IMG/VR virus record: IMGVR_UViG_3300019935_000003
Coordinates: 1 to 56,659 of that record
Strand: one strand, 5' to 3'
Source of the DNA: a virus
Taxonomy: Duplodnaviria > Caudoviricetes
Length of the DNA stretch: 56,659 bases
Notes under the pieces: generated by a model
Told to the model about the DNA's origin: nothing
What the model saw: only the letters and a program-made list of their open reading frames with translations
Databases searched by the model: none
Shown: positions 50-56,625 of the stretch, piece by piece
Position numbering within the stretch: position 1 is the first letter of the stretch
Layout: every line of letters starts with the position of its first letter
Translations under genes and position numbers: made by a program

Positions 50-110
50 TTAGCTACTTTGGGGATGGTGGGTCTGGAGTGACTCGAACACTCGACCTGC
101 CGATTATGAG
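50..110. repeat. Left att site (displaced 3' half of the tRNA)
   Basis: TTAGCTACTTTGGGGATGGTGGGTCTGGAGTGACTCGAACACTCGACCTGCCGATTATGAG is identical to 56533-56593; identity ends at the anticodon loop; ATAATTAAAACAG (33-45) also recurs at 56516-56528. Confidence 0.95.
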
Positions 111-2352: not shown

Positions 2353-3882
2353 TTATTTGTACATTCTATGCCCACCCATTTTGCGTCCTGCACCTGAAAA
2401 AACAGCCTTTTTATTAAGGCTCTCGTCAAATGTTAATGCCAATGCATCCCCCTCATCTGGGGAATGCTTGAGGCGTTTTTTTATGCTGTCTTTGCTTTCC
2501 AGTACGCGCCGCCCTTTCTGATCGTATTTATATGTTGGGGCAGTTAAGTCAGCATGTAATGAATTACTGTCAGGAATATCTACTTCACCAGTTTCTAACC
2601 ACTCTCGCATTAGCCACCACATTTCTGCACGCCGATTTACATATTCATCTTTTTTTATGGCACTGCTGCCAAAATTAACCCCGTTTATCAGACGTTTATA
2701 GTTTGTTTTATGTAGTATATCGACAACACCAGCACCTACGCCCCCCTCGTCAATATTCATGCTTTTTACATCATTATCCCTTAGAATTTCCTCACATTTT
2801 TCTGCAATTTGTGTAATGCTTAGTTTGCTATATGTTTGTATTTTCTCGCATTTATTACCGCGCCTCAGTACTATGGCTGTGTTATCGTCACCAAATCGCG
2901 CGGGATCTACCCCTACTATTAGATCCTCCCAGCCTGTTAAATTCGCCTTATTTTCCCTTGCCTTCATGACAATACTTGGAATTATTAATGCATTCTCATT
3001 GGAACTTTGGAATGCTTCAATGTCATTAAGCGGATAGTCTCGTTTAAACCTGTACAACCCATCACTACCAAATTTCCCGATCTTCATTCTGCGCCAAACA
3101 ATTTGCTCTAAATCCAGCCCATACTCTTGCATAAGCTCATGCTCTTCAGGCTTTAATATGAAATCCTTAGGCACTTTGTGGCGGTATTCCTGCTGCAATG
3201 TCCAACTGAGAAAAACAGGAATAAATTCATTTTCTCCCCTCTTGGCTAACTCCCATATGTCATAAAATAAATTATTCATACCATTGGCTGTACTTTCTAA
3301 AATAACTTCTGTACCTGCTGCATTGGGAACAGTCTCCATTACACCAGAAGCGTGCTCGTAAGAATTTGCCCAAAAACCCACCTCCGATGCATGAAAATTA
3401 TGTGTTGTCCCACTGCGTCCTGTAGACTTATTCTCAGAAGTACCAATGGTGTAATCACTTGTTAATCCTCCAAAATCTAGGACTTTAGAATTATTTTTTC
3501 TGATGCTTGGCTTTATGAATTCAGGTAGGTTTTCATAAAACAGTTTTGACATGTTAAAAATTTTAGTCGATGCCGCCAACTCATGGGCTAGAATGTACGT
3601 GACGCGCCCCCTATTCATTGTTGTATTATGAAAAAAGCGTCCTTCTGTGTACGTTGAAATACCTTGCTGTCTACCCTTTAATACAATAGCCCTAACAACC
3701 CCTATATCTCTTTTTTGTTGTTCAATAATATTATGCAAAAATCTTTGTGATTCATTTATCTTTAATGCCTCCATGCGTCCATTTTTAGTCCTTATTTTTA
3801 GGGCGTGGTGCATATAAAAAATCAAATCATTTCTAAATTTTTGCCGCATTATATTTCTATTCATCAGTGGGCATTCCTGCAT
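2353..3882 (-). CDS. terL: Terminase large subunit
   Basis: LKGRQQGIST, HASEVGFW, ILESTANG, nuclease motifs GVDPARFGDD and SPDEGDALALTF. Confidence 0.93.
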   Translation of the reverse strand: MQECPLMNRNIMRQKFRNDLIFYMHHALKIRTKNGRMEALKINESQRFLHNIIEQQKRDIGVVRAIVLKGRQQGISTYTEGRFFHNTTMNRGRVTYILAHELAASTKIFNMSKLFYENLPEFIKPSIRKNNSKVLDFGGLTSDYTIGTSENKSTGRSGTTHNFHASEVGFWANSYEHASGVMETVPNAAGTEVILESTANGMNNLFYDIWELAKRGENEFIPVFLSWTLQQEYRHKVPKDFILKPEEHELMQEYGLDLEQIVWRRMKIGKFGSDGLYRFKRDYPLNDIEAFQSSNENALIIPSIVMKARENKANLTGWEDLIVGVDPARFGDDNTAIVLRRGNKCEKIQTYSKLSITQIAEKCEEILRDNDVKSMNIDEGGVGAGVVDILHKTNYKRLINGVNFGSSAIKKDEYVNRRAEMWWLMREWLETGEVDIPDSNSLHADLTAPTYKYDQKGRRVLESKDSIKKRLKHSPDEGDALALTFDESLNKKAVFSGAGRKMGGHRMYK

Positions 3883-4354
3883 CTTTCATCCACTGATCAA
3901 AGGAATCTTCTATTTTATTTGCGCCTAAATCATTTTTAAGTCTTTCTATTGCTTTATCTTTTGTGTATAGCTTGTATTTATATACTATTTTACCATTCCC
4001 CTCTGAGTCTAAATGCTCCACAATTGTAGCCTCTTGGACTGCTGCACGAATATGTGTAGGGAATTTATGAGGGCGCAAAGGTTCCCCTGTATTTTTATCA
4101 AATAACTCTGTGAAATCAGAAAAAGCAACACACATATCATGATAATTAATATGTAATGATGTTAGGCTTTTATCTCGCTCATTTAGTAAAGTTTTGCGCC
4201 TTTCTATATCACCTTGAATCCGTTCATTTTCTAGCTCTTGCTGTACTTCACCTTGTGTTTTTTTGCCCTTATGCGCGCCATTTTCTGCAAAGTAATCAAT
4301 GACATATTGGTCTAAATATGTCTTGCCTTTCTGTTTACTATCCATTTCATCCAC
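3857..4354 (-). CDS. terS: Terminase small subunit
   Basis: Overlaps the terL start; KYKLYTKDKAIERL C-terminal motif typical of small subunits. Confidence 0.7.
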   Translation of the reverse strand: MDEMDSKQKGKTYLDQYVIDYFAENGAHKGKKTQGEVQQELENERIQGDIERRKTLLNERDKSLTSLHINYHDMCVAFSDFTELFDKNTGEPLRPHKFPTHIRAAVQEATIVEHLDSEGNGKIVYKYKLYTKDKAIERLKNDLGANKIEDSFDQWMKDAGMPTDE

Positions 4355-4431: not shown

Positions 4432-5988
4432 ATGCCAAAGCCAAAATCTAGCAGTCTAACAAAGCAACAGGTTTATGATATTATTAATGATATCATTGAC
4501 TTAGATAGTATTGAACATGATAAAATTTTAACGGGTATTGGTATTACAAGGGGGCAACTTGAAGGTGTATTAAAAGATACAGAAATTGATGGAGTATTTA
4601 GTATACGTCTAAATTCTCTATTATCTTATGTCTCAAGAGAAGCCAAAGCGAACGGGAAAAAAAGCCATGAAAAACAAGAATTAAGAGAATCAAGATTATT
4701 AAAATTGGCAGGTGAAAAACATCCGCTTTATGATCATATTTATGATTGCGTGATGGATAATCTTGTTGTTTTTTCAAGAATGGTAATAAATTCATTAAAA
4801 TTTGGTAACAGTGTTACACAGCTGATTTATAAAGAAAAAGATGGTATTTTTATTCCTAATGAGTTGCTGGAGAGTCCAGTGGACTGGTTTTTCCCACTTG
4901 ACAGAATGCATATTTTCACACGCAAGGACGGTGTAGAGAGCTTAAGCAACCTAAGCTGGTCAAGCGGTATATCCCTTATAGGGGTTAATACAGGTGTCAA
5001 TAATGATTCGCTTCTGGACGTTGATAGAAAGTTTCTTTTGTTACGTAACGAGGCAACACACACCAAACCGCGCGGTGTAGCGATGCTTGCAAAATTATGG
5101 TGGTTTCAATTTTTTAAGCAAAACGGTTGGGGATATTGGGCTGATTTTTTAGAGTCCAGTGCTGTGCAGCGTGTCATAGGAGAGGGAAAAGACCCCGAAA
5201 TGATAGCGGAAAGCCTAGGAATGTTGGTTAATAATAGTGTAGCTGGTGTTCCGCAAGGTACTAATATTAAAGAGATTCCAGCGTCTAGCAATGGTGAAGC
5301 ATTCGACTCCTTTGAAAAGAGAATTGTTACACGCATATGGATGTATGTATTGGGACGCGCGCCCCTCTCTGAAATGAGTACAGGATCGCGTGCTGGTCAG
5401 CAGTCAGAGGATTTGCTTAGACTGGATTTGCTACAGTCGGATGTATTTAAATTCTTTGAAGTTTTGAACAAATTCACGGCTATGATTTGCCGCGCCAATG
5501 GGTTACCTGATGATGAATTAACTTGGTATTTTGATAATGAGGCGGGTATACGGCGCGAATTAGCGGATCGTGATGCTGTGCTTGCAAGCTCTCTAGGTGT
5601 CCAGTTTAGTGCTGACTATGTTGCAAGAGAATACAACATAGAGTTAAGTGATATAGAAATTCAAGAAAAACAAAGCGGTACATCGGCGGGGAATTTGTCC
5701 AGTAAGAAAGAAAGCATGATGTTTTCCAATACTGAAGAAAAAGCGGCGGAAAAACAGCATGATCAACTGGATAGTATTATTGAAAATGCAGCAGAAAGTG
5801 ATGATGTAAATGATATGGTACTCCAAGTGCTGAAAAACTCAGAAAATAAAGATGATTTTATAAAGCAGCTCGCATTATGTGCAAGCTATGGTGCAATGGG
5901 GGTTGATAATGAGCTACTTAATATAGTAGACACTGCATCCTTGTTAGGGCTTGCTAATGTCCAAAATGAGAGCAAAGACAATGCCTAA
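4432..5988 (+). CDS. Portal protein, Mu gp29/DUF935-like
   Basis: PRGVAMLAKLWW...WADFLE, GSRAGQQ..LRLDL and DYVAREYNI motifs; precedes a gpF-like gene. Confidence 0.75.
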   Translation: MPKPKSSSLTKQQVYDIINDIIDLDSIEHDKILTGIGITRGQLEGVLKDTEIDGVFSIRLNSLLSYVSREAKANGKKSHEKQELRESRLLKLAGEKHPLYDHIYDCVMDNLVVFSRMVINSLKFGNSVTQLIYKEKDGIFIPNELLESPVDWFFPLDRMHIFTRKDGVESLSNLSWSSGISLIGVNTGVNNDSLLDVDRKFLLLRNEATHTKPRGVAMLAKLWWFQFFKQNGWGYWADFLESSAVQRVIGEGKDPEMIAESLGMLVNNSVAGVPQGTNIKEIPASSNGEAFDSFEKRIVTRIWMYVLGRAPLSEMSTGSRAGQQSEDLLRLDLLQSDVFKFFEVLNKFTAMICRANGLPDDELTWYFDNEAGIRRELADRDAVLASSLGVQFSADYVAREYNIELSDIEIQEKQSGTSAGNLSSKKESMMFSNTEEKAAEKQHDQLDSIIENAAESDDVNDMVLQVLKNSENKDDFIKQLALCASYGAMGVDNELLNIVDTASLLGLANVQNESKDNA

Positions 5989-8745: not shown

Positions 8746-8775
8746 TACATTTATTTAAGTCAATTAAATTTTTTA

Positions 8776-8835
8776 ACAATTTATTTTAAGAATTTTAAAT
8801 TATTAGGTTGACTTAAATATTAAGGAGCGTATAAT
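8776..8835 (+). promoter_or_regulatory. Conserved cassette promoter P2
   Basis: TTGACT(8808)-16-TATAAT(8830) with the same upstream element. Confidence 0.8.
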
Positions 8836-8907
8836 ACTACACATGTTAAAGATAAAGCCGCCCACAACGGGAAGGCGCAAAACCAGCGAAAGCAAGGTAA
8901 TTAAAAC

Positions 8908-10156: not shown

Positions 10157-10176
10157 GTTGGGTACGTAAAGTTTTT

Positions 10177-10237
10177 ACAATTTAATTTAAAAAAATTAGA
10201 TTATTTGGTTGACTTAAATTTATAGCTACTCTATAAT
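10177..10237 (+). promoter_or_regulatory. Conserved cassette promoter P3
   Basis: TTGACT(10209)-17-TATAAT(10232) with the same upstream element. Confidence 0.85.
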
Positions 10238-10314
10238 GTAATACATACTAGAGAAAACAAAGCAACTATGTACTTATTCTAGTTAACGCACTAACCCTAA
10301 AAAGGAAATTGAAA

Positions 10315-12890: not shown

Positions 12891-12957
12891 TTTTTTGGAT
12901 TTTTAAAAAGGTGGAATACATTTAAAACAGTATTTCACCTTTATTTAACACCTAATA

Positions 12958-13018
12958 ACAATTTAAATTAAAAAATTTATATTATTTGGTTGACTTAAAT
13001 TTATAGCAAGCCTATAAT
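12958..13018 (+). promoter_or_regulatory. Conserved cassette promoter P4
   Basis: TTGACT(12990)-17-TATAAT(13013); its 5' leader is also similar to that of P1. Confidence 0.85.
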
Positions 13019-13064
13019 GAAGTCACTTTATAGAAAAACGCAGCACACCAAAAGGCTCATTATT

Positions 13065-18269: not shown

Positions 18270-18560
18270 ATGGAGAAAGTACTAAGGTCTGATTTAGCTT
18301 TCATGATTGAAGCTAGAATGCGAAACAAAGAATTAACCCCTGAAAATTTTATTGATGCATTTACCGACTCTGTGCAGGACTGCATGAAAAAAGGCAAACG
18401 TATTTCACTTAAAGGCTTTGGGCGTTTTGAGCCTGTTCATAGACAGGAAAGAATGGGACGTAATCCTAAAACTGGAAAAGAAGCTGTGATAAAAGAGCGC
18501 ATACGCCCTGCTTTCAAGCCCTCAGATGGCTTTATGATATTGATTAATGGTTTTAGGTAA
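18270..18560 (+). CDS. HU/IHF-family DNA-bending protein
   Basis: ISLKGFGRFE...R.GRNPKTGKEAVI..R.RPAFKPS. Confidence 0.93.
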   Translation: MEKVLRSDLAFMIEARMRNKELTPENFIDAFTDSVQDCMKKGKRISLKGFGRFEPVHRQERMGRNPKTGKEAVIKERIRPAFKPSDGFMILINGFR

Positions 18561-20854: not shown

Positions 20855-21408
20855 TTAATGTCTCCCAAAAAAGTTGCGATAATTGGTACATCACTATCAT
20901 TATTTATAGGCTTCTCAGGTGTTGGTATACGGTATACACTTGCACGCGTTTGGTACTTTAGCTCTAAAACAGCAAGCCCTAACTGTGTTGTTCTAAACGT
21001 CATGCCGTCATCTTGTAGGCTTAGTCCTGCTAGTTCCCCGCTTAAAAAAGCCATTGACTCTACTGTATGGATTGGCTTGCTTGCAGTGACATCATTAAAA
21101 TTATCACCTTCTACGCTGTCATCAACATTGTTAAAGCTTAGACTTTCGTGCACAGATTCAAGATAATTATCTTGCACTAATTCAGGCTGTTGGATACCAG
21201 AACACACCGCCTTAGCCACCACCACGCGTGAAGAATGATAAACCAATGCATAGGCAGTATCGTCAAATGTAAAAGAGGATGCATCAATATACTTACCATC
21301 AACTTTTTTTACAAGTCGTGCGGAAAGATGATCATTACTTGTTGTTTTTTCTTGCGCCGATGCTTTAAATGTAGCTGTAACAGTGGCTTTTATTCTTTTG
21401 AATCTCAT
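20851..21408 (-). CDS. Putative tail protein (paralog of 53109-53675)
   Basis: Coupled in the tail operon; aligns by eye with the 188-aa ORF at 53 kb. Confidence 0.6.
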   Translation of the reverse strand: MRFKRIKATVTATFKASAQEKTTSNDHLSARLVKKVDGKYIDASSFTFDDTAYALVYHSSRVVVAKAVCSGIQQPELVQDNYLESVHESLSFNNVDDSVEGDNFNDVTASKPIHTVESMAFLSGELAGLSLQDDGMTFRTTQLGLAVLELKYQTRASVYRIPTPEKPINNDSDVPIIATFLGDIK

Positions 21409-23597
21409 ATTTTAAGCCTTGCTAAGAATTGCGTTTTATCCCCGTCCTTATTGTTGTATACGCCGAATTCATGACGGCGTGCCGTGTAAGTTATTTCAGC
21501 AAGGGAATAGTGATCATCATGCGTAACCATGTTTTTTCCTGAAAATTTAACCTCACCTTCAGGTGGCGTGTAAAACCACTTAATTTTTACAATATCAAAA
21601 ATCGGATCACTTACACTTGCCGCGCCGTCCTTGAATTCTACTTGCTGCGTAATTTCCCTGACCGTGACACCCTTGTATGAAATTTTTACCCATTGACGAC
21701 CTGAGTGCAGTACCTCCACATTTTGCGCCCACGGTATGCGGTATAGGAAAAGCTTACCCCCGCTGTCATCATTACCCTCAAATGTAAACGACCATTGATC
21801 ACTCTCTGCATCGGTCACTCTTACTTGGTTTATATAATCTGTTTTTCCGTAGCCTTCTGAGTAGCTTAGAACGTCGTCATCATCAGTGATATCCACAGCG
21901 GGCGCGGCAATATTCCAGTTTTTACGTTGCACAGAAAAGTGTGGGCGTATCCACAGTGACCCATCACCCAACGTAACTATATTTGCACGTATCGCCCCTG
22001 TGATTTTCTGTATAACCTCCATTGGTGTGACATCGGTATACTGGACACGTTGCGGAAAAATAAACCAGTCTACCGCGTCCCACTTAACGCTAACCCCTGC
22101 CTCGTCTGCCATAAGCTGTACCAGTTCACTAGCCATTAAACCATTTTCAAGCATCACAGCACGTTTTTTAGCCCTAGGCTCTGCCAGTTTAGCAGTGGGG
22201 CAAATGCAATGTATTGTGTATTCAGTACTGGTGGGACTTTGGCGCGACATGCTTTTTTCTTCTACAAGCATCAAATAACTTTCGTCACCTAATACTAATG
22301 TAAACTCAGAATCATAGGAGAGTGCTAAAAATGCAGCGTTATCATGCAGTGTGACCGAACCGCTATACCCATACGTCCCTCTATCGTCATTTATTGAAAC
22401 ATCGGAAATATCATACTTTTTTGCGTTAACTTGTATGTAATATTCTTTATCTATTATTTGGGCACTTGGTACTATATCAGGTTCTGAAGTATTGGAGGAA
22501 TGCAGCGTTTTTATAAAAATGCTTTTCTGCTGTAATTCATTAGAAGAATGGATTCCTTTCTGTAAATATTTGGTACAGGAATTAACACCATGCAGCGTAC
22601 TATCTATTACTTTATTTAATGAATTTACACCGTGAATTTCAGATTCTAAAAACATAGTATTAAATGACTGAATACCCGCTTCTAAATACTTAAATTGCTG
22701 TAGCTCATTAACCCCATGCAATGTACTTTCGTGCTGCTTATGGCAATCATTAAAGCCCTCAATCGACACGGCAAACAGGCAAGTTTTAAACGACTGAATA
22801 CCAGCTTCTAAGTGCTTATACTGCTGCAACTCATTAAAACTATGTAAGCCGCTTTGGTGTTCTTTCTGACAGTCGTTAAAGCCCCCTAGTGATGCAGAAT
22901 GCAGGCAAGTGTTAAGCGATTGAATACCCACTTCTAAATGTGTAAATTGCTGTAATTCATTAACTCCATGCAATGTACTTTCAAGTTCTTTTTCACACGC
23001 ATTAAGCCCACCCAATGATGCAGAAAATAAACAAGTATTTTTTGAGTGTACAGTTGACTCTAATTTATTGTATTGCTCAATATCAAAAAAGCTTTGCAAC
23101 CCACTTTCAAAATAAACAACACTGGAATTTACACCCTGTATACCAGCCTGTAATCTATCTTTCTGCTGAATATGTAAAGTTGATTCTATTAGATTGATTA
23201 CTTTCTGTGTTATTGTGACATCAAATAATGATGTATTGCTACTTTGTATGCCATAATGCAGCTGTATGTATTGTTTCCAATTTATACGTAAAGCCATGTT
23301 GCTACGCATTGAACTCTTTTGTTTCCAGTTGAGCTGTAATGCATTACTACGCCTATTTGTACTATGTTGAACCCAATTTATTTGCAGTCCTGACTTTTCC
23401 CCATAGCTGCTTTTTTGAGTCCAATTAATACGAACTCCTATAGAGCTGGAGGGGCTGCCTTGGTTAGCGGAAAAGTTAAAAACAATATTATTCTTATCAG
23501 GGGGGGTGTAAGACTGCTTAAAATCAAAAACAATATTATTCTTGTTGGGGGGGTATAAGGCATATCGGATTACACTAAATACGTGAAAAAATAACAT
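21405..23597 (-). CDS. Tail hub/structural protein with internal repeats
   Basis: ~39-aa repeats (LESTLHGVNELQQFxHLExGIQSxxTCL) followed by a hub-like domain; start uncertain. Confidence 0.65.
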   Translation of the reverse strand: MLFFHVFSVIRYALYPPNKNNIVFDFKQSYTPPDKNNIVFNFSANQGSPSSSIGVRINWTQKSSYGEKSGLQINWVQHSTNRRSNALQLNWKQKSSMRSNMALRINWKQYIQLHYGIQSSNTSLFDVTITQKVINLIESTLHIQQKDRLQAGIQGVNSSVVYFESGLQSFFDIEQYNKLESTVHSKNTCLFSASLGGLNACEKELESTLHGVNELQQFTHLEVGIQSLNTCLHSASLGGFNDCQKEHQSGLHSFNELQQYKHLEAGIQSFKTCLFAVSIEGFNDCHKQHESTLHGVNELQQFKYLEAGIQSFNTMFLESEIHGVNSLNKVIDSTLHGVNSCTKYLQKGIHSSNELQQKSIFIKTLHSSNTSEPDIVPSAQIIDKEYYIQVNAKKYDISDVSINDDRGTYGYSGSVTLHDNAAFLALSYDSEFTLVLGDESYLMLVEEKSMSRQSPTSTEYTIHCICPTAKLAEPRAKKRAVMLENGLMASELVQLMADEAGVSVKWDAVDWFIFPQRVQYTDVTPMEVIQKITGAIRANIVTLGDGSLWIRPHFSVQRKNWNIAAPAVDITDDDDVLSYSEGYGKTDYINQVRVTDAESDQWSFTFEGNDDSGGKLFLYRIPWAQNVEVLHSGRQWVKISYKGVTVREITQQVEFKDGAASVSDPIFDIVKIKWFYTPPEGEVKFSGKNMVTHDDHYSLAEITYTARRHEFGVYNNKDGDKTQFLARLKI
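22560..23110 (-). repeat. Coding tandem repeats, ~117-bp period
   Basis: Recurring GACTGAATACC.GCTTCTAA and CCATGCAATGTACTTTC blocks. Confidence 0.75.
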
Positions 23598-34306: not shown

Positions 34307-35338
34307 TTATGATTCCTGTAGTTTGGTAGCAGTAAAGAATGCGCTTTCGCCTTTTGGCACATTTTCCAGTGCGATCAATTCCCCTTCTAATTCCATAGAG
34401 GCGAAATCATCACTGATTAATCCTAATTCTTTTAGCGGTTTAAACTTGATTCGTGAAATATCAATGACCACAGGCGCGTCACTGTCAGCAGTGTTTAAGC
34501 CTTCTACAAGCAATACATATTCTTTACCACTGTTAAGTAAGGATTTAATTAATGTATGCGCCGATGCTGTTGCAGTAATATGTAAAATAGAGTTTTCTTG
34601 AATAGCACCTTCTGACATGACGACCACACCAGCGGCTGTCACTTCAAAATCTGCATCACTGTACTGCACACCGCTAGATAAGGTAGCTTGTGATGATGCG
34701 GTAACCAACTCTTGTGGGTCGCCTGTGATCACATAAACACCAGCATCATTATTTTCCAAGTAGGCGCGAATATCGGACGCTGTTGTAATTGCTTCAGCAC
34801 TGGAATTAGTCGCAAGATTTACAACAATATCACCCGCAGTGTTGGTAATATTCAGGGATTCGTTACTTGTTGCAGGCTTGATAATTTCAATGCTTAGCGT
34901 ATTACCAGCAGTGCCCGATTCCTTAGCATAGAATCGCAAGCCGCCCACTGATAATTCTGCACAAGACTTGACTACAACATTTTTTGCATTCAATCCTTGT
35001 AGGCGAATTAAATCATCATAGTTTCGCAAAACGGCATAGGTTTCCGTTGCCATTTGCCCCTTGTTTTCACTTTCCCCATAGAGGGCTAGAGCCAAGTTTC
35101 TGTTATTCAGGTTGCTTGTGCTAAGTGTTGCGGTAACAGATTCAATACGCGTAGAGCTTGCTGTATTACCGCCGCCCCCTTGGTAATTTGCCAAGGTTTT
35201 AGTGTCTTCAGCAATACTAATTTTTACTTCAGAACAGTTACCTAATCGCATAAGTGACGACTGGATACCGTTGCTCGTTCTTTCTGCTAAAAATACTTTT
35301 CCATTACCAATAAATGCTTGTTCTCTATGCTGTGCCAT
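34307..35338 (-). CDS. Major tail tube protein with an inserted domain
   Basis: FIGNGKVFL...LGNCSEVKI...NLALALYG; C-terminal LGLISDDFASMELEGE. Confidence 0.8.
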   Translation of the reverse strand: MAQHREQAFIGNGKVFLAERTSNGIQSSLMRLGNCSEVKISIAEDTKTLANYQGGGGNTASSTRIESVTATLSTSNLNNRNLALALYGESENKGQMATETYAVLRNYDDLIRLQGLNAKNVVVKSCAELSVGGLRFYAKESGTAGNTLSIEIIKPATSNESLNITNTAGDIVVNLATNSSAEAITTASDIRAYLENNDAGVYVITGDPQELVTASSQATLSSGVQYSDADFEVTAAGVVVMSEGAIQENSILHITATASAHTLIKSLLNSGKEYVLLVEGLNTADSDAPVVIDISRIKFKPLKELGLISDDFASMELEGELIALENVPKGESAFFTATKLQES

Positions 35339-37515: not shown

Positions 37516-39708
37516 TTAAAGCTCTTCTATTTCAACAGTTAAAAGCCCTGTTGTATTAGAAACAGAATTATTCAAGTCACAGTTATAAAACACACTATCA
37601 TTTAAAATTGTGTACTTATTATTGGTATCGTCAGTGGTTGACTGATAGGAGTAGTTATAAGAGCCGCTTTCCCCTTCAGATAAGTTACTGCAACGTAATC
37701 GGCTTGTGTCGTACACTTTGACACCTAAATCTGTTTGTCGATTAGTCCATGCTGCAATCTGTAAAGAGCGACGTAAGAAACCACCTAATGTGTATGTGCT
37801 GCCACTACTGTTTATTGTCGTGACTTCACGCCCTGCCAAGTTGACCGCGCTAATCTCTTGCCAGTCAAAAATCCCTTTTAAATTATCATCATGTACGTTA
37901 ATCGTGTTGATAAAGCGTGTATTATTATTTTGCCCTTGCCAGTTTCCAATAAGTTCACCTGCATCTTCGACAACATCAATTGATGCATTTAGTAAACGTT
38001 GTGTAGAATTAAGTTGTACCGTGTAACTAGGAACACTTGTACCCATATTCCCGCCACTAGCAAGACGCGAAAAAGGCAAGGAAACCGATAATTCAGGCAA
38101 TGTATGAGCAATATTTACAACAGTACTGCGCGTTGTTACTGCACTGTTGGCTGTACGCGTAGCCTTCATTGTTAAGTTGGGCGTATCAATGTTGTAGCCC
38201 CCACCATTGCGTGTCACGGCAAGCTGGGAGGGGGTAGGCGATTCTATTAATAATTCAGAATTTGAAGAGAATGCTGTGGCGGTGTCTGCATTGATCACAC
38301 TGTGAAACACAGTTGCCTGCTCACTATCTTTTAATGCTTGCTGACCAGTTGGGTATTCTGTATTTATAAAGTCGATGCTAGGGTGCAAGTTATTGACATT
38401 TAAGACATGTATACCATTATCACCACCATGTTCTGCTGTGTTGTACATATCAGAACTTGATCCTGTTGAGTCAGTCACATTAAGTACAGCCCCTAGCTGC
38501 TGCAATGTATTACCTTTATCAGCAACTGTGACCGTAAATGTATGGACTGTGTCTTCACTTGCTGTATGCGTTACGGCTTTTAGTGCTTCAGCATTAAATA
38601 CTTGCACCATCTCAACAGGTTCTGACGCGATCACTTTTAAGAGGAATGTATCCCCTTCTTTTAATTCTGTTTGCCCTACTGGATATTCACCAGTGAAATA
38701 AGCATTTAAAATTTTAGGCTTAGATTTCATGGTAACCGTGGCAACATCTTCACCACCGTTAGACTTGACCGCTTTAATATCAAATGTTTGTAGGCTTGCG
38801 GGAATCTCTAAATCAATCACACCACGATAAAGCAGCGGGCTATCAGTACCTGACATTGTTACCGTTTCACCGTTCACCTCAACAACAGGCACATAATTCA
38901 CACCGCTCATGGCATCAACTGTTACACGAATTAGGCGCGTGTCAGATTGGCAAGTTTCAAGCGTTTTGCCTTGACTGCTGAATACTTTAGAGCCAACATT
39001 TCCAGAACCTTGTGGCTCAATATTCGTAATAAAAACACCACCTTGGTTTGTTGTTTCGGTAGGTGCTGTGGGTTCTGTAGGCGTTGGTGCAGTAGGTGCA
39101 CTGGTTACTGTGTTAGGCATAGTGTTGCAACTTGATTTCGCTTGGCAGTTTGGTTGATCATAAAACGTAGCAGGTGAACGCCCATGAAATTTATCCATCA
39201 CATTCTGTGTAAGCCGTTTTGGTTTTCCACATACAAAAATACGACTTGAATTATCAAGTTGCTTTTCTGTAACTGGCAATAAATTTATGTCACTATTAGC
39301 AATTTCTTTTAAGCGTTTTAGAGCTTTTTCGTAACGCTTTAGGACATCTTCAGCAACTGCACCAGACCCGCCACCATGCAGATAGTAGTAAGCAATATCA
39401 CAAGATATGCCGCTAATCATTGCGGGAACTGGTGCGGGTAAAGGTGTTTGATATTTCTTAAAAAGGTACGAGTCCACATCGCTATCAGCACGCTGGCAAG
39501 ACCATGACAACACACGCTTAGCAGATAAAAGCGCGGCATTTTCTTCTTCAGAATTACCGACCGTGTTTAGATCACAAATAGCTTTATAGAAAAATGCTTC
39601 AGTTAACACATAGGGTTTATCGTCTTTTGGCTTAAAGCATAAGTCTTTTAAAGAGCTAGGAAACTCTAAAGACATATATTCAAAAGTTGCATAAACCCCT
39701 GTGTACAT
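37516..39708 (-). CDS. Head-tail adaptor (Mu gp36/DUF1320-like) fused to a long beta-rich extension
   Basis: ADSDVDSYL..KYQTPL..VP.MI..ISCDIAYYYL...V.KRYEKALKRLKEIA, then a PT-rich linker and ~500 aa Ig-like region. Confidence 0.75.
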   Translation of the reverse strand: MYTGVYATFEYMSLEFPSSLKDLCFKPKDDKPYVLTEAFFYKAICDLNTVGNSEEENAALLSAKRVLSWSCQRADSDVDSYLFKKYQTPLPAPVPAMISGISCDIAYYYLHGGGSGAVAEDVLKRYEKALKRLKEIANSDINLLPVTEKQLDNSSRIFVCGKPKRLTQNVMDKFHGRSPATFYDQPNCQAKSSCNTMPNTVTSAPTAPTPTEPTAPTETTNQGGVFITNIEPQGSGNVGSKVFSSQGKTLETCQSDTRLIRVTVDAMSGVNYVPVVEVNGETVTMSGTDSPLLYRGVIDLEIPASLQTFDIKAVKSNGGEDVATVTMKSKPKILNAYFTGEYPVGQTELKEGDTFLLKVIASEPVEMVQVFNAEALKAVTHTASEDTVHTFTVTVADKGNTLQQLGAVLNVTDSTGSSSDMYNTAEHGGDNGIHVLNVNNLHPSIDFINTEYPTGQQALKDSEQATVFHSVINADTATAFSSNSELLIESPTPSQLAVTRNGGGYNIDTPNLTMKATRTANSAVTTRSTVVNIAHTLPELSVSLPFSRLASGGNMGTSVPSYTVQLNSTQRLLNASIDVVEDAGELIGNWQGQNNNTRFINTINVHDDNLKGIFDWQEISAVNLAGREVTTINSSGSTYTLGGFLRRSLQIAAWTNRQTDLGVKVYDTSRLRCSNLSEGESGSYNYSYQSTTDDTNNKYTILNDSVFYNCDLNNSVSNTTGLLTVEIEEL

Positions 39709-42764: not shown

Positions 42765-43031
42765 GTGCTGAAAAGTGAAGTGATAAATCAACTATCTGAA
42801 AAGATAGATTTTTTAACTAAAAATGGGTACAGTTATTATGCAATATCAAAATTTATAGGGTGTGCACGAACAACAGTTGCAAGACTGCACAAAAAGGAGC
42901 TTAAGGACGTGGGGGGAGATGTTATAGTCGGTTTGTGTTTGTATTTTGACATGGAATTTCCATGCATACAGCACAGGAAAGATTTTCTGAAGCGCGTAGA
43001 TATAGCGCAAAGAAAAAAATACCTGGCATAG
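42765..43031 (+). CDS. Small HTH protein divergent from the late operon
   Basis: NGYSYYAISKFIGCARTTVARL. Confidence 0.7.
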   Translation: MLKSEVINQLSEKIDFLTKNGYSYYAISKFIGCARTTVARLHKKELKDVGGDVIVGLCLYFDMEFPCIQHRKDFLKRVDIAQRKKYLA

Positions 43032-43052
43032 AGTAAACTATGCCTAAGCATT

Positions 43053-43886
43053 TTATATATTAATGGTGTATTGTGAGGCAATAAACTTAAAAACAAACTC
43101 GTCGAACTCGAATCGTTTTAAGTCTAGCCTATTTCTAAGTAGATAATTAGAGAGCTTTGCTTCTTTGTCCAAGTACATTGTGTAGTTTTTGCAGTCATTT
43201 TCTTTATATTCGACTTGCCCTCTCCCTGCTGACGATAAACCTTCTTTTATATCAGTAAAGCGTTCAAGACAGTCAAAACCCGATATAAAATCGACAGCAG
43301 AAAGGTATAAATCTCCTATTTCAACCCCTTCTGTTTTGGATATAACGCTTAGTTTTACATAAAGGTAAGTTGGTATAGAAACAAAATCCGCCTTATGAAT
43401 TTTACTTGTTTTTCTACCTCTGCGCTCTTCAGAAAAAGCAGATTCATTTATAAATTCAACGCTTGTTTTTTCCACTCTTAAACTACTGTGTCTTTCTATT
43501 ACACGAAAAGCCATATATGAGTTTAATACGTTTGCAGTGAGGTACAGTCCTTCGCGTAATACAGTCATGCAATCACGAAAAGTTTTCGTAGTAATGCTAT
43601 TTAGGACATACGCTCCTTTTTTTCTTGTTGAGTACTCAATACTGTCTTTGTATTGCGCAAAGTCTTTGTCGGACTGAAAGTCTCCCTTATTATCAAATTC
43701 AGCAATATATTCAGCAAAAATTAAATCAATTGGTGCTCTCCCATAGTACGCTGCGATAACAGTTAAACGTCCTCTATACTCTTCGGGAATAGACATATTA
43801 AGAGACCTGACTGGCTCAATATACTCTACGTTTCTCCTTCTTTTTATTTCATTAACTCTTTCAAGCAGCTTATCAAAACCTTCCAT
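43053..43886 (-). CDS. Internally duplicated ribbon-helix-helix-like DNA-binding protein
   Basis: SLNMSIPEEYRGRLTVIAAYYGRAPIDL and DFVSIPTYLYVKLSVISKTEGVEIGDL align with each other and fit the RHH pattern. Confidence 0.5.
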   Translation of the reverse strand: MEGFDKLLERVNEIKRRRNVEYIEPVRSLNMSIPEEYRGRLTVIAAYYGRAPIDLIFAEYIAEFDNKGDFQSDKDFAQYKDSIEYSTRKKGAYVLNSITTKTFRDCMTVLREGLYLTANVLNSYMAFRVIERHSSLRVEKTSVEFINESAFSEERRGRKTSKIHKADFVSIPTYLYVKLSVISKTEGVEIGDLYLSAVDFISGFDCLERFTDIKEGLSSAGRGQVEYKENDCKNYTMYLDKEAKLSNYLLRNRLDLKRFEFDEFVFKFIASQYTINI

Positions 43887-43964: not shown

Positions 43965-46553
43965 TTATATCGCTGCTGCCTTTTTTTCTTCTCTTAAAGC
44001 CTTTAATGCTTTGGAAACTGTTCCCTTGTGTGTGTCGAGAGCTACAGCAATTTTAGACTGTGTTACTTCTCCTTTTGCGGAAAGTATTTTGTATACCTCT
44101 ATTACTTTCTGCTTTGTCGTCATACCAGCCGATTCCTTAATAACTTGAATTGGATCAGTTTCCACTTCTTTACTTTTAATAACTGGAGTTTCCTCCTTAA
44201 CTCCCAAGTTTCCACTGGCTACCGTTTCCACTTTGTTTTCCTCACTTCTCTGTGGCTCTGTGTGTTGAGCTGTATTTTCAATATTTGAAGGCTGGTTTCC
44301 AATGTTTCCAGTGGAAACAGTAGAAACACCCTTGGGAGTTGTTGTAAAACTACCACTATCGGCAAAGTTCATGCCATAATATAAGGGAGTCACACCAAAA
44401 TCACGAGGATATTTATTTGCTTTGTTAATGGTAGTATTTGCATTACTAATACTTGGAATGTCTTTTTTATCATGTGGTTTATTAAAAAACCCATCTTTTT
44501 TCTGTGTGGTTTCCATAGTTTCCACTTGAGTTTCCCGCATGGTTTCCATTGATTTAGGGGTTTCCACAGGGGAAACTTTTTCCTTTAAAGGTCTTTCGTT
44601 ACTGGCAACACTGGAAACAACAGGGGTATCTTTCGGTAATGGTTTACGTAAAACTTTCTGTAATTTTTCACGCAATAAAGGTGTAAAACCATGGTGCCGT
44701 GCTTCTAATTTATCAGCAATGTCGTATGTGTCTTGCTCGGATATAAACATTGTTTGAACCTTAATAAGATTCTTACCTTCAAATGCAAATAACCCTTGAC
44801 CCTGCCCCGCTAAATCTTCAGCCCCCTTGTAACCGATAACAGGAACAGATTCACGCCACGAATTTACACGTAATGATAGCTTTGCTGAATTCCCTTTAGC
44901 ATAGCGCGGTACAGTTTCTGCACTGGGAATCTGCGTGGAGAGTATTAAATGTATTCCTGCTGCACGCGCCTTACCTGCTAATTCATTAAGCACCCAAGCT
45001 GCTGTTTGTTCACTATCAGCATTCCCCTTATCATCTAATTCCACTTTTATTTTACTTGAACCAAGCCCTGCAACCTCGTCAACGACAAAGAAAATATAAG
45101 GCATTTTTTCTGCTGAAAACTTAGCGTGAAACTTTTGGATATTAGAGCAACGATTACTACTTAAGCGGCGCAAACGTTTAAGCATTTCATTGTATGTAAA
45201 TACAAGTAAAGCACAGCTATCTTGTACTGTATCTGAGAATCCTATTGTGTGTGGTAAATTTTGGTAGCGGGATAATTCAACGCCACACTTAAGGTCATTT
45301 AAAATTATGTTGACTTGCTCAGGTGAATGATTTTCTAAAATCTGCGTGATATAGGAGTGCATTGCCACTGACTTTCCACTATTAGTCATACCACTAAAAA
45401 TAAGGTGGCAAAAATCTATAAATGATGCATTTAGTTGCTCACCACTACCGATAGCTTTACCTATGCATACAGTAAGTTGTTTTTGCTCTTGCTGCATTTT
45501 TTGATAATGTTTGGGCAAGTAATCAATGATCATGCCTTCCTTTTTTTCTATTTCAGATTGCGCTACTTCAGATGCTACAAGTTTACCAATCTGATCATCA
45601 TCTTTATTTTCAAGCGTAGGGGGGGGGGTGTGACTTTTTACCCAGCCTTGAGAATTACCAGTGTCGCCTTTATTTTTGCCTTTCTTTTTCTTTTCCTGAA
45701 TAACAGCAACGCCCCCTGAAAAATGCGGCGCAAAAAAGCAGAAACTACCAGCAAGCTCGCACAGTATCGCCATAAACCACAATAGGTAAGTTATTGAATC
45801 ATTATAAGTTGCATCACTCCCAAGAGCGTTAAGGATGGACTGTAACATGGTAAATGCGTCATTTCGCTCTTCATTTATGTTAACCGAATTTTTAGATATA
45901 CTATTGAAGTTTTCCCGCGCCTTTTGCTCACGCTCTAATGCTAATTCATAAAGCTTTTTGTTCTCTATAATTTCCAGTGTGTTCTGGTAACTATGGCAGT
46001 ATTTTTTATAATAAAATGAACTGCTTTTAGAAGGCTCACAAGTTTCCGTCATTGCTGCAACAGTTTGCCCTGTGTACTTTCCTGCACTATTTTCAGCAGC
46101 TTGGTTTAATATGTTTTCAGCGTTAATATAAAGTTGCTCAATAGTTTCCCCCCCCCTGTATGTCACAAGCTTGTTAACTTCTTTTCTTGCCTCATCGAGT
46201 TCATTTCTAGCCCCCTCATAAAGCAAACTCTCACGTTTAAGGGTTTCATGACGCTCTTGTATTGTATCGCGCGTATAGCCTGAAAATGAGACGAGAGAAA
46301 CAGCGGTTAATGCCAGCCAGACAAGGAATGTAAGCGCAAAAGAAACAGGCTTTTCATTCGCCCGATGGTATGCCATTAAGTATGCGGTTGAATACTTCAG
46401 TAAATCGAATGCAACACCCATTGCTGCAACAACAAGGCTAAATTGAATGTAAAAATTGAAATTAAAAAATATAGATATAGCACCTAGCACTATACCAATA
46501 AGTGTCATGAAAAATGCAGGGGAATCCCTAAAAAAAGAAGTCTCTTTAGACAT
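43965..46553 (-). CDS. Membrane-anchored FtsK/SpoIIIE-family DNA translocase with C-terminal HTH (TraB-like architecture)
   Basis: Four TM segments; HLIFSGMTNSGKS, DLKCGVEL, NEMLKR, FVVDEVAGL, LAGKARAAGIHLILSTQIP, GAEDLAGQG; C-terminal VTQSKIAVALDTHKGTVSKALKAL. Confidence 0.92.
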   Translation of the reverse strand: MSKETSFFRDSPAFFMTLIGIVLGAISIFFNFNFYIQFSLVVAAMGVAFDLLKYSTAYLMAYHRANEKPVSFALTFLVWLALTAVSLVSFSGYTRDTIQERHETLKRESLLYEGARNELDEARKEVNKLVTYRGGETIEQLYINAENILNQAAENSAGKYTGQTVAAMTETCEPSKSSSFYYKKYCHSYQNTLEIIENKKLYELALEREQKARENFNSISKNSVNINEERNDAFTMLQSILNALGSDATYNDSITYLLWFMAILCELAGSFCFFAPHFSGGVAVIQEKKKKGKNKGDTGNSQGWVKSHTPPPTLENKDDDQIGKLVASEVAQSEIEKKEGMIIDYLPKHYQKMQQEQKQLTVCIGKAIGSGEQLNASFIDFCHLIFSGMTNSGKSVAMHSYITQILENHSPEQVNIILNDLKCGVELSRYQNLPHTIGFSDTVQDSCALLVFTYNEMLKRLRRLSSNRCSNIQKFHAKFSAEKMPYIFFVVDEVAGLGSSKIKVELDDKGNADSEQTAAWVLNELAGKARAAGIHLILSTQIPSAETVPRYAKGNSAKLSLRVNSWRESVPVIGYKGAEDLAGQGQGLFAFEGKNLIKVQTMFISEQDTYDIADKLEARHHGFTPLLREKLQKVLRKPLPKDTPVVSSVASNERPLKEKVSPVETPKSMETMRETQVETMETTQKKDGFFNKPHDKKDIPSISNANTTINKANKYPRDFGVTPLYYGMNFADSGSFTTTPKGVSTVSTGNIGNQPSNIENTAQHTEPQRSEENKVETVASGNLGVKEETPVIKSKEVETDPIQVIKESAGMTTKQKVIEVYKILSAKGEVTQSKIAVALDTHKGTVSKALKALREEKKAAAI
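44158..44618. repeat. Intragenic GTTTCC/GGAAAC hexamer array
   Basis: GTTTCC at 44158, 44188, 44208, 44224, 44295, 44304, 44509, 44518, 44530, 44542 and 44560; GGAAAC at 44313, 44571 and 44613. Confidence 0.9.
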
Positions 46554-46853
46554 AATATAAACCTGTAAAAAAATGTAAAAAACACAATAACAGGTTTAAT
46601 TATACTACATAAAACAAAAGACAGGAATGTAAAAAGCTTTAATATACAGGCATATAGAGGGAGTATGAAAGGCGTTTGTTATTGCGTTCTACAAAGTCTA
46701 TATATCTAAAAAACAAAGAGAATACACGCCTTTCAGGGGGTATACATGGTACTTTACACAGAAACATAAGGCAAGCTATGTATTTTATAATTCATACATT
46801 TTTTAACATTTAGATTTAAGAAAATAAAATTATTTAAAAAAACAAAAAAGTTA

Positions 46854-46882
46854 TTGACTAATAGGCTATATATGCCTATAAT
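46854..46882 (+). promoter_or_regulatory. Cassette-type promoter P5
   Basis: TTGACT(46854)-17-TATAAT(46877). Confidence 0.8.
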
Positions 46883-46947
46883 ATCCCCCAACAAAGCCAG
46901 AAAAAACTTTTTCAAGGCACAAATCCAGCACTAGCGAGAGATAGAAA

Positions 46948-55253: not shown

Positions 55254-56348
55254 ATGCCAAAAAAAATAGGAGAAATGATACATATTGTATTTTATGTAAA
55301 TGGAAAACGTATGCAACGCACAACCGGGTTAAAATTTAACTCAAGAAATTGGCGTAAAGCTGCAAAAATGGAAACAGAAGAAAGAAGTAAAGCATTAAAA
55401 GATAAGCCATTTTTAAGCATTCCCTCTGAAAAAGAGCGTGCAAATAGATTAACAGTAGAACGTGTTTTAAGTGAATACTTAGAATACCTTGAGTTGAGAG
55501 TCAGATCAGGCGACGAAAAAAAACGCGTATTTGATGAAAAAAAGCGTAACTCTTTAAAATTTGAAGCATTATTTCCTGTAATTATTTTTGAACTGACAAA
55601 AAAAAATGTTTTGGAGCATATAAATACTAGGCAATTAGAATTTAACGAGACAAATGATAATGTAAACAGGCAGTTATCCGTTCTTTCATTGGCTATACAA
55701 CATGCACAAAAATGGCATGGCGTAATAATAAGCAATGTAACAACGGGGTTAAGGTTGAAAAGAAACTCTCCTAGAACTCGACATGCAAGTATTGAAGAAA
55801 TTGAACTGTTATTGTCAGCAGCAAAGAAAAGTGAAAATGTAAAATTATATGATTACGTAGTCATTCTTTTAAATACAGGTATGCGCGTCACAGAGCTGCT
55901 TAGTTTAAAAGAAAGTGAGTTATGTATAGAGGATAGAACAGCGACATTAAAAGACACTAAAAACGGCTCTACGAGAGTAGTTATATTAAATAATAAGGCT
56001 GTTAAATCGTTTAAAAGCCTTTTAGCTATAAAAAAGGCTCAAAGTAAAGGTATTTATAGTCCTTATATATTCCCGTCCGACTCTGAAAAAGGACATGTAT
56101 TATGCTTCAAAAAAAGCTATAACTCAGCGTTAAAAACATCAGGCATAATATGGAAAGGAGAGGATAAATTAACAATGAGGGACTTAAGGACAACATATGC
56201 AACACACGCACTGAACTCAGGTGTACCCCTGAATGTTGTGCAGGGAATGCTGGGGCATAGCAGCCCAGAATTGACAGCTCGTGTATATGCATTTACAAAA
56301 CTATCAGAAGATAAAAATAAAAATATACTGCTAAGATTTAAGATTTAA
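55254..56348 (+). CDS. int: Tyrosine integrase
   Basis: NTGMRVTELL, DTKNG, RDLR (HxxR variant), LGHSS and catalytic Tyr in ARVYA; adjacent to att. Confidence 0.95.
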   Translation: MPKKIGEMIHIVFYVNGKRMQRTTGLKFNSRNWRKAAKMETEERSKALKDKPFLSIPSEKERANRLTVERVLSEYLEYLELRVRSGDEKKRVFDEKKRNSLKFEALFPVIIFELTKKNVLEHINTRQLEFNETNDNVNRQLSVLSLAIQHAQKWHGVIISNVTTGLRLKRNSPRTRHASIEEIELLLSAAKKSENVKLYDYVVILLNTGMRVTELLSLKESELCIEDRTATLKDTKNGSTRVVILNNKAVKSFKSLLAIKKAQSKGIYSPYIFPSDSEKGHVLCFKKSYNSALKTSGIIWKGEDKLTMRDLRTTYATHALNSGVPLNVVQGMLGHSSPELTARVYAFTKLSEDKNKNILLRFKI

Positions 56349-56361
56349 TTTTTTAAAAAAA

Positions 56362-56403
56362 TAAAATTATTTGGTTGACTTATGCGTGTATTTATATAAT
56401 AAT
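56362..56403 (+). promoter_or_regulatory. Cassette-type promoter P6 pointing toward att
   Basis: AAATTATTTGGTTGACTTA matches P1; -35 at 56375, AATAAT at 17-bp spacing, then GAAAATCACTT like the P1 leader. Confidence 0.6.
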
Positions 56404-56532
56404 GAAAATCACTTGTTAATTACTTGTTTTTTTAAAAAGTTGGTAAAAAATTGAGAAACAAGGCTATAATTCACATCAACAGTGTAAATTATTAGTATTT
56501 GTAATTAAGGCAAACATAATTAAAACAGTAAC

Positions 56533-56593
56533 TTAGCTACTTTGGGGATGGTGGGTCTGGAGTGACTCGAACACTCGACCTGCCGATTATGAG
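56533..56593. repeat. Right att site
   Basis: Second copy of the 61-bp repeat, overlapping the intact tRNA. Confidence 0.95.
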
Positions 56594-56625
56594 TCGGATG
56601 CTCTAACCAACTGAGCTACAGACCC
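56549..56625 (-). tRNA. tRNA with CAT anticodon, probably tRNA-Ile2 (lysidine type); integration target
   Basis: Reverse complement GGGTCTGTAGCTCAGTTGGTTAGAGCATCCGACTCATAATCGGCAGGTCGAGTGTTCGAGTCACTCCAGACCCACCA folds as a 77-nt cloverleaf with CCA; the GACTCATAATC arm resembles Ile2. Confidence 0.9.

Follow-up and report, generated by a model that had tools for sequence, protein, structure and literature searches.

TraB-type proteins (TraB, Tra, KilA, TraA, TraSA) are carried by plasmids and integrative elements of mycelial actinomycetes. They transfer double-stranded DNA (dsDNA) and consist of a membrane-associated N-terminus, a single motor of the FtsK family and a C-terminal helix-turn-helix (HTH). 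The DNA is addressed by clt, a locus in which short repeats, direct as well as inverted, are clustered; it lies at the 3' end of the gene or close to it. The AICEs, integrative and conjugative elements of actinomycetes, are integrated in tRNA genes and carry int, rep and tra. Here we describe a gene which has a membrane-associated N-terminus, a single FtsK-family motor, a similar C-terminal HTH and, clustered near its own 3' end, short repeats in direct and inverted orientation. Its carrier is a tailed virus (Duplodnaviria; Caudoviricetes). The gene codes for an FtsK/SpoIIIE-family membrane-anchored protein of 862 aa and is located at positions 43965..46553 (minus strand, ATG start) of the IMG/VR virus record IMGVR_UViG_3300019935_000003. 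The whole record of 56,659 nucleotides was analysed and is referred to as the window. Like the AICEs, the window element is tRNA-integrated and possesses an integrase and replication genes. Judged by sequence, gene and repeats make up a putative translocase module of TraB-like design, addressed in cis and carried by a tailed prophage; according to the curated family model the protein is not a TraB member. We found no literature report of a TraB-like module or of a clt-like array in a tailed phage; subscription journals were thinly covered in this search.

Several clt loci have been characterized. They are described (PMC3583192) as clusters of 5-9-bp direct repeats plus inverted repeats. The clt of pWTY27 has four 7-bp repeats in 175 bp, which include 16 bp of the 3' end of traA; the clt of pJV1 has nine 9-bp repeats; that of pIJ101 has three 5-bp repeats, G(C/A)AAC, plus an inverted repeat near korB (PMC3583192). 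Helix alpha-3 of the C-terminal domain of TraB is reported to read 8-bp repeats (PMC3583192), and TraB hexamers are reported to assemble on the 8-bp repeats of clt (PMC4447253, PMC4170104).

Chromosomal FtsK/SpoIIIE proteins resemble the window protein in that four hydrophobic segments are present at the N-terminus, along with a RecA-type motor (motor identity about 30-39%) and a linker. In chromosomal FtsK the linker is positioned ahead of the motor, whereas in the window protein it follows the motor, and the tail of the window protein is unlike the gamma domain. Phages are also known to carry single-motor FtsK-like ATPases (PHROG 1358; Bacillus gamma-like, Herelleviridae), as does the window. 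In the mycobacteriophages of cluster J, gp201-203 possess a private C-terminal DNA-binding domain, as does the window protein, but they are described as devoid of a membrane domain (PMC3706429). Further, in our tree the cluster J proteins are nested within chromosomal FtsK, unlike the window protein. The function of phage FtsK-like proteins or gamma-like domains is called unclear in three papers (PMC3706429, PMC4113786, PMC8190038).

Protein architecture and the putative C-terminal DNA reader

A preliminary description of this DNA, made from its letters and open reading frames (ORFs), had noted an 862-aa protein in which four transmembrane (TM) segments are combined with an FtsK/SpoIIIE ATPase that is intact, a linker of low complexity and an HTH at the C-terminus. 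The ORF and all of these features were confirmed, the hydrophobic segments by a hydropathy scan, the ATPase by Pfam and the HTH by profile comparison. According to Kyte-Doolittle the segments comprise residues ~13-31, 35-52, 70-92, and 255-276. The first three, residues 13-92 (46278..46517; all parts of the gene are on the minus strand), are TM-like and are helices in an AlphaFold2 (AF2) model of low confidence. By the positive-inside rule the stretch of ~160 aa between segments 3 and 4 should be located outside the cytoplasm. It is predicted, at low confidence, as a long helical hairpin (residues 93-254, 45792..46277; long helices 95-130 and 180-245). The whole single-sequence AF2 model has a predicted local distance difference test (pLDDT) score of 59; parts of the hairpin score 73-88. 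The fourth segment, residues 255-276 (45726..45791), is followed by a lysine-rich stretch. The N-terminal 340 residues have no matches, the N-terminal domain has no sequence relatives among shorter proteins, and the AF2 model of the N-terminal domain had 0 Foldseek matches in BFVD at E <= 0.001. Its Atlas look-alikes are unnamed viral and Pseudomonadota clusters, i.e., leads only.

The protein has one motor domain. This FtsK/SpoIIIE RecA-type ATPase, residues 346-620 (44694..45518), was assigned by Pfam and PHROG. The Pfam model FtsK_SpoIIIE (PF01580) scores 79.4 bits over residues 351-544 against a cut-off of 24, which makes the protein a member of the family. PHROG 1358, 'FtsK/SpoIIIE-like protein', matches residues 346-620 with E 1.2e-56 and 193 bits and covers the ATPase alone. 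The Walker A motif is GMTNSGKS at residue 388 (45369-45392), the Walker B motif FFVVDE at residue 488 (45075-45092). A low-complexity linker of ~180 aa follows, residues 621-800 (44154..44693), rich in T/K/E/P/V/S. The protein terminates with an HTH, residues 805-862 (43968..44141), which resembles the C-terminal HTH of TraB/Tra.

The evidence for this resemblance comes from profile comparison. The Pfam HTH matches are all below cut-off (DUF7343 17.2 bits, MarR 15.5, HTH_24 14.2). In BLASTP the last 73 residues align with residues 564-623 of the 648 residues of pIJ101 Tra (28% identity, E 0.002), which is, by this alignment, the homologous C-terminal position. The same 73 residues gave no BLASTP alignment with one chromosomal FtsK. 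We built a profile from the last 100 residues of 7 Streptomyces Tra/TraB proteins, pIJ101 Tra and six others 43-80% identical. An alignment of the window tail with P0073, a related 211-aa protein introduced below, matches this profile in hhalign with a probability of 87.5% and E 3.6e-6 over 31 columns, i.e., helix 2, the turn and the recognition helix. The window tail as a single sequence reaches 87.1%. Controls were uniformly low: 0.08% for the same query against 8 full chromosomal FtsK proteins including gamma. Compared with the TraB profile, two further window proteins that have an HTH reached 0.29% and 0.06%, and the tail of a second phage protein, L008, reached 0.48%. Every E-value given for an HTH or a motif is from a targeted single comparison. 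The preliminary description had called for a comparison with TraB, FtsK-gamma and TcpA; in the HTH it turned out on the side of TraB and away from gamma, and in the ATPase tree a specific grouping with a TcpA-like protein did not emerge. Thus, on sequence grounds the C-terminal HTH is specifically like the clt-reading HTH of TraB/Tra and unlike FtsK gamma.

The TGGAAAC array and a second phage

A k-mer cluster scan of the window flagged an array in the 3' third of the gene. Within 607 nt (44012..44618) there are 12 exact copies of TGGAAAC on both strands, spread over the DNA which codes for the linker and the HTH. Nine copies are on the coding strand, i.e., minus (44158, 44208, 44224, 44295, 44304, 44509, 44518, 44542, 44560); three are inverted, i.e., on the plus strand (44012, 44312, 44612). 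At 44304..44318 an inverted pair is separated by a gap of one base. In the entire window the heptamer occurs 19 times compared to 8.15 +/- 2.9 in shuffled sequences (0/100 shuffles reach 19), and 12 of these 19 copies are inside 44012-44618. Among all 7-mer clusters in the window this one ranks first. The word GTGGAAAC is present 7 times in the window, with 1.4 expected, and six of the seven are inside the same 44012-44618. When one mismatch is allowed the array has 17 copies, 5 beyond the exact 12, with 1.9 expected for a uniform distribution.

The array exceeds what the encoded protein sequence would lead one to expect. On the coding strand six copies are in the frame xTG-GAA-ACx and encode (V/M)ET, three are in the frame xxT-GGA-AAC and encode xGN. 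The three template-strand copies, GTT-TCC-A, encode VS. All four VET tripeptides use GTG, yet only 10 of the 54 Val codons of the gene do so. Synonymous redrawing of residues 640-850 yielded 2.0 copies on average and never more than 7; 0/20,000 redraws reached 12. In 2,000 synonymous redraws no 7-mer at all reached 12. Because three frames and both strands are used and the resampling expectation is far exceeded, the array is a DNA-level feature which is written through a tolerant coding region. A larger tandem unit beneath the heptamers was not found by TRF. Polar over-represented 7- to 9-mers of the type of FtsK guide motifs were searched in the whole window and yielded nothing convincing. 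Separately, a GCTAAAA cluster at 388-614 was considered as iterons of an origin and dropped; the word has 37 copies in the window and no extended consensus.

We consider the array probably to be the loading site of the FtsK-like protein. A site array within a gene for a DNA-binding protein is not without parallel. In lambda, the ori iterons lie in the linker-coding part of the O gene. The principle is the same as in the window, a DNA-binder with a site array in its own linker-coding DNA, although lambda O is an initiator and not a translocase, and the comparison is an analogy only.

The heptamer core equals the clt repeat of pIJ101. GAAAC is contained in TGGAAAC, and GCAAC in one of the one-mismatch variants; G[CA]AAC on either strand is present in only 192 of the 16,384 7-mers. 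The densest G[CA]AAC cluster of pIJ101 has 7 sites in 200 nt (6824-6915), including one exact TGGAAAC, and is located between a GntR-type gene and the next small ORF. This density scan did recover the known clt region. Noticed post hoc, the match appears to connect two likenesses, that of the recognition helix and that of the DNA core.

A second phage has the same design with a different word and a different type of HTH. This phage is uncultured and known from an IMG/VR contig, L008, which codes for a TerS and a TerL of its own and also has methyltransferase genes and one that is repressor-like. Its FtsK-like gene (L008:2758-4521, 587 aa) codes for a hydrophobic multi-TM N-terminus, the Walker A variant GMTNSGK, a linker of 70 aa and a C-terminal HTH. 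In 220 nt of linker-coding DNA (L008:4200-4420) there are 13 copies of CGCACA, of which 12 are on the coding strand; all three frames are used. Synonymous redraws gave a mean of 1.2 and a maximum of 6 copies; 0/20,000 reached 13. Differences to the window are considerable: the ATPases are 28% identical, the HTH is below threshold for HTH_38 and HTH_23 and not of the TraB type, and L008 has no large outside loop.

Such arrays are no general trait of these linkers. Our viral survey comprised 82 open frames with the ATPase, i.e., the window, L008 and 80 IMG/VR loci; many of the latter are near-duplicates of one 428-aa family, which reduces the effective sample. In 20 of the 82 frames the tail is 50 aa or longer. 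Significant arrays were found in the window and in L008 only; unlike these, the other 18 tail-bearing genes have no repeat array (p >= 0.15). In thirteen other FtsK-like loci the top 7-mer clusters have 3-7 copies.

Placement of the ATPase and possible destination of the DNA

Close relatives of the window protein are scarce. A word-indexed search returned a 100%-identical fragment and otherwise chromosomal-type FtsK with at most 37% identity over about one third of the query. When 1.84 billion representatives were searched exhaustively with phmmer, 22,191 proteins had E <= 0.001, and only two are near. P0073 (211 aa) is 71% identical to window residues 656-859. P0074 (464 aa, one TM segment), from a Gammaproteobacteria metagenome-assembled genome (MAG), is 43% identical over the ATPase. 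The FtsK motif TQRP reads TQIP in the window protein (residue 542, ~44926-44937) and TQLP in P0074, i.e., the arginine is absent from both. No close relatives of the protein were found in viral, genome or metagenome contigs; the genome contigs contained one distant FtsK from Patescibacteria, the viral contigs one distant relative, L008. Capsid and neighbor-ORF queries against viral contigs had no match, nor did a megablast of 22 kb against phages. A survey of homologs for phage context, as suggested in the preliminary description, thus brought up L008 and the many FtsK-like genes of phages, and no close relative in any contig. Of 50,697 phage records 377 match (Bacillus 270, Mycobacterium 52), and at least 373 IMG/VR stretches match the FtsK-like ATPase. 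Nearly all examples from cultured phages have Gram-positive hosts. Two apparent Gram-negative examples were discarded. Acinetobacter phage MD-2021a (L005, CAKLQF020000028.1) is host DNA with chromosomal ftsK, minCDE and trxB; Xanthomonas phage Xoo-sp15 (L006, MN364664.1) is labelled UNVERIFIED_ORG and is classed as Caeruleovirus, a genus of Bacillus phages.

None of the curated whole-protein models reaches its cut-off. The FtsK equivalog PRK10263 of NCBIfam scores 84.2 bits with a cut-off of 1566, and the type VII secretion system (T7SS) models EccCa and EssC score 64.9 and 62.1 bits with cut-offs of 509-778. EssC/EccC proteins can be set aside because they have two or three tandem ATPase domains as against one here. 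FtsK_4TM (PF13491), FtsK_alpha (PF17854) and FtsK_gamma (PF09397) are absent among the Pfam matches at E up to 1. PADLOC reports SspH (E 1.4e-33) and mad8 (E 7.2e-10) for ATPase residues 352-615 only. With no match beyond the ATPase, and none in either of the two flanking ORFs scanned, the protein does not belong to the SspH/DndH-type or mad8 systems. In the PDB the closest relatives are FtsK motors; next come chains that bear the name 'DNA translocase coupling protein' (E 2.4e-14).

Quick IQ-TREE trees were calculated from 94 ATPase domains and from 38 rows hand-picked from these; branches are long and a single TraB is included. In the 94-row tree the window protein pairs with P0074 (SH-like approximate likelihood ratio test, SH-aLRT, 98). 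The pair is outside of a clade of 71 rows with all sampled chromosomal FtsK proteins (SH-aLRT 89, and 82 in the 38-row tree), which further includes the proteins of mycobacteriophages and of Herelleviridae and one plasmid protein associated with phosphorothioation. The pair is part of an unresolved basal comb with pIJ101 Tra, the Bacillus phages Finn and Gamma and a TcpA-like plasmid protein. The 38-row tree agrees with this placement; in this subset a clade with L008 is not rejected (p-AU 0.51 in the approximately unbiased test). The preliminary description had listed a grouping with chromosomal FtsK or with defence ATPases as an outcome which would speak against a TraB-like transfer protein. 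The tree shows neither, for the sampled chromosomal proteins and for the one sampled defence-type ATPase. As a side result, ten giant proteins of 2,312-3,075 aa (P0075, P0077, P0080, P0082, P0083, P0085, P0087, P0089, P0098, P0209) have 6-8 FtsK-like ATPase stretches each and form a fully supported, long-branched clade.

How could such a module operate? We tentatively propose, by analogy, a TraB-type, self-addressed DNA pump which passes the phage genome between cells. The protein would form a hexameric ring in the cytoplasmic membrane, as do FtsK and TraB. Its HTHs would attach to the heptamers of the phage genome while this is excised or in replication, possibly helped by the product of a neighboring gene which may be of the ribbon-helix-helix (RHH) type. 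The motor would then thread double-stranded phage DNA through the membrane at a septum or at a cell-cell contact. Most likely the purpose would be to hand the genome to an adjoining cell without a virion, in analogy to TraB of plasmids and AICEs, while the replication module of the phage would keep a copy in the donor. We favor transfer because the reader and the clustered site are traits of TraB and not of FtsK, and because the set of integrase, tRNA attachment (att) site and replication genes is that of AICEs.

A considerable number of points weigh against this proposal. The window ATPase is a deep, long-branched lineage of its own, neither FtsK proper nor demonstrably TraB, which differs in this from the TraB family. 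The plasmid TraB equivalog NF041214 scores 22.8 bits, in the ATPase only, compared to a cut-off of 800, and its best piece in a six-frame search 13.3 bits. The tree speaks neither for nor against kinship with TraB; in the 38-row subset the AU test does not reject a grouping with pIJ101 Tra (p-AU 0.49, delta lnL 1.04). The layout of the N-terminus, three TM segments, a loop of 160 aa outside and one more TM segment, is an orphan without counterpart in TraB. The HTH likeness is confined to 31 columns, with E-values from single targeted comparisons. Since the window protein stops about 10 residues after the recognition helix the wing of TraB is absent, and the match is partial. The agreement of the heptamer core with the pIJ101 repeat was spotted after the array had been found, and a 7-mer scan of pIJ101 did not rank the known clt as top cluster. 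The array region is identical in contigs from 4 other runs and hence uninformative on conservation. No Spd-like genes were recognised in the window. TraB carriers are mycelial actinomycetes, whereas the carrier here is a tailed prophage with a terminase and a probable low-GC gammaproteobacterial host. The host is thus probably Gram-negative and diderm. To our knowledge dsDNA transfer by a single protein is without precedent in Gram-negative gammaproteobacterial hosts. Export of DNA on cell contact by a diderm organism has been described for TdtA of ICETh1 in Thermus thermophilus transjugation, where the donor is said to actively push DNA out; the process needs, however, the competence machinery of the recipient. 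Altogether, the analogy to TraB drawn in the preliminary description is partly supported: the likeness of the HTH, the clt-like array and the repeat core speak for it, whereas the curated model, the orphan membrane domain and the undecided tree do not bear it out.

The destination of the DNA is where the most serious competitor differs. Anchor, motor, reader and site would fit equally well to a pump at the closing septum which, guided by the array, clears replicating or excised phage genomes or partitions them to the daughter cells in the manner of FtsK and SpoIIIE, with the neighboring protein as a ParG-like partner. We regard this as possible, though doubtful. The motor is of the FtsK family and its best structural relatives are FtsK proteins; the look-alikes of the neighbor include ParG, Arc and CopG, again as leads only; and phage FtsK-like proteins are assumed, in PMC3706429, to bind to and translocate along phage DNA. 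On the other hand, the reader resembles that of TraB and not FtsK gamma, and a XerD-interacting gamma domain is lacking. Moreover, the sites are clustered like clt (12 of 19 within 607 nt), unlike the guide motifs of FtsK, which are polar and scattered, and a prophage which integrates has little need of partition.

It is unlikely, in our estimate, that the array is no translocase site at all, i.e., an operator for another regulator such as the RHH-like neighbor or a by-product of low complexity, with the protein as an accessory ATPase. Certainly, FtsK-like genes are common in phages, PHROG 1358 is a recognised family, the role of phage FtsK-like proteins is stated as unclear in the literature, and L008 has an array in spite of a non-TraB HTH. 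Yet the heptamers occupy three frames and both strands far above synonymous resampling, the layout recurs in an unrelated phage with another word while 18 of 20 tail-bearing genes have no array, and the heptamer core is that of the pIJ101 clt repeat.

A role in defence or superinfection exclusion, in which a membrane pump expels or blocks the DNA of related phages or acts in a system linked to DNA modification, appears improbable. PADLOC matches SspH and mad8 at the level of the ATPase, the gene is in a region which is mosaic among related contigs, and a membrane location would suit the interception of incoming DNA. These PADLOC matches do not extend beyond the ATPase, however, and the one sampled phosphorothioation-associated representative is elsewhere in the tree. 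The flanking ORFs of 277 and 396 aa, the only two scanned, are without PADLOC match, and the site array is on the phage's own genome. Finally, an ATPase of the coupling or TcpA type that feeds a relaxase and a type IV secretion system (T4SS) of the host or of another element is highly improbable: the coupling-protein chains in the PDB and the TcpA-like protein in the same comb would agree with it, but there is no specific grouping with the latter, none of the scanned ORFs matches a relaxase or T4SS family, and a sequence-specific C-terminal HTH with a repeat array of the double-strand type is a trait of TraB and not of coupling proteins.

The latter negative result concerns 54 distinct ORFs, each compared with PHROGs or Pfam, several ORFs of 90-150 aa being left out; 0/54 matched a relaxase or T4SS family. 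TerS and TerL are present. Both agree with the preliminary description, which had seen no recognisable relaxase or T4SS genes and a terminase of the phage's own.

Beyond the single locus, a wider reading joins two ideas, which together we hold to be rather speculative. One is that of a hybrid between phage and conjugative element: after excision and replication the dsDNA genome would be pumped, virion-free, into an adjoining, possibly filamentous gammaproteobacterium of the mat. The other is that of a class of self-addressed FtsK-like pumps in phages with arrays of loading sites hidden in their own disordered-linker DNA; the class would be represented independently by the window and by L008, each with a word and a reader of its own. 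If the protein is an intercellular pump, temperate phages would have a virion-independent route which is not tied to the host range set by receptors and which evades many defences at the envelope as well as the sampling of viromes. Transfer of dsDNA by a single protein of the TraB type would no longer be a peculiarity of actinomycetes. If segregation is correct, this would be the first sequence-addressed partition device of the FtsK type in a phage. Either way, arrays of binding sites that run through all three frames of DNA coding for a linker can be recognised as a signature, and this could be mined genome-wide. FtsK-like phage proteins have been annotated for more than a decade without a function (PMC3706429, PMC4113786, PMC8190038); now there is a candidate word, a candidate reader like that of TraB and a second phage of the same design, and all are testable.

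The prophage, its habitat and neighboring genes

The preliminary description spoke of a complete tailed prophage. The virion modules, the integrase and a pair of att sites support this; the record itself is classed as linear and is rated 67% complete by CheckV. Completeness hence rests on the att pair. The CheckV estimate is probably low, as the phage is without close relatives. The left att core of 61 nt (50..110) is identical to the right one (56533..56593), which overlaps the 3' part of a tRNA-Met gene, the integration target (56549..56625, minus strand). A tyrosine integrase is encoded at 55254..56348 (plus strand; Phage_integrase 93.5 bits). Full head, tail, packaging and replication modules and the integrase are between both att junctions. 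Packaging and head genes include TerL (2353..3882), TerS (3857..4354), and the portal (4432..5988). Further virion genes code for minor head, head protease, major head, tape measure, major tail and sheath-like proteins. A DnaC-like helicase loader and an exonuclease are also encoded.

Downstream of the FtsK-like gene, in the same direction, is a 277-aa ORF (43053..43886, minus strand) which matches no known family. It is possibly an RHH DNA-binding protein, a lead only, which is based on Atlas look-alikes from language-model and fold comparison (Arc, ParG, NikA-like, CopG); the AF2 model is unusable at a pLDDT of 35. A terminator-like hairpin at 43025..43044 (minus strand), from a consensus scan only, ends the two-gene unit. 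On the other side a divergent intergenic region (46554..46947) was subjected to a promoter scan. A strong rightward sigma-70-like promoter is present at 46854-46882 (11/12 matches); leftward candidates are weak only.

DNA of the window is present in 13 runs, all labelled as microbial mat metagenome, and the FtsK-like protein is also recorded on a contig of 233 kb. TerL is about 40% identical to TerL of Pseudoalteromonas and Vibrio phages. In view of these relatives and of the Gammaproteobacteria MAG from which P0074 originates, a gammaproteobacterium of low GC is the probable host. Contigs which stem from further mat runs diverge from the window at 43941, 44494, 45939/45974, 46470, and 46824-46860; past 44494 a divergent contig begins like the P0073 allele. 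As the contigs break there to unlike sequence, the region of the FtsK-like gene is mosaic among phages of the same habitat. Divergent alleles differ mainly at third codon positions (44799-44880, 46302-46542).

Several minor observations concern other parts of the window. An element of ~56-100 nt with a near-consensus TTGACT...TATAAT end is found five to six times ahead of rightward genes (7185-7292, 8762-8840, 10163-10270, 12944-13051, 56352-56407; partial 46795-46834). The copies probably constitute a phage promoter family in which an upstream operator is shared. Three tandem units of 126 nt (72% identity) at 22656-23033 are inside a gene for a 730-aa tail protein (21405..23597). Another 730-aa protein (37516-39708) has a tail-sheath PHROG match and shares ~40% identity with the sheaths of jumbo Pseudomonas phages of the phiKZ type. 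For a gene near the sheath (34307-35338) the match is 'major tail protein with Ig-like domain'; such a combination is unusual in a phage of 56 kb. The rightward early region encodes WYL-domain, HU-like and CoiA-like nuclease proteins (9614-10096, 18270-18560, and 18627-19973, respectively).

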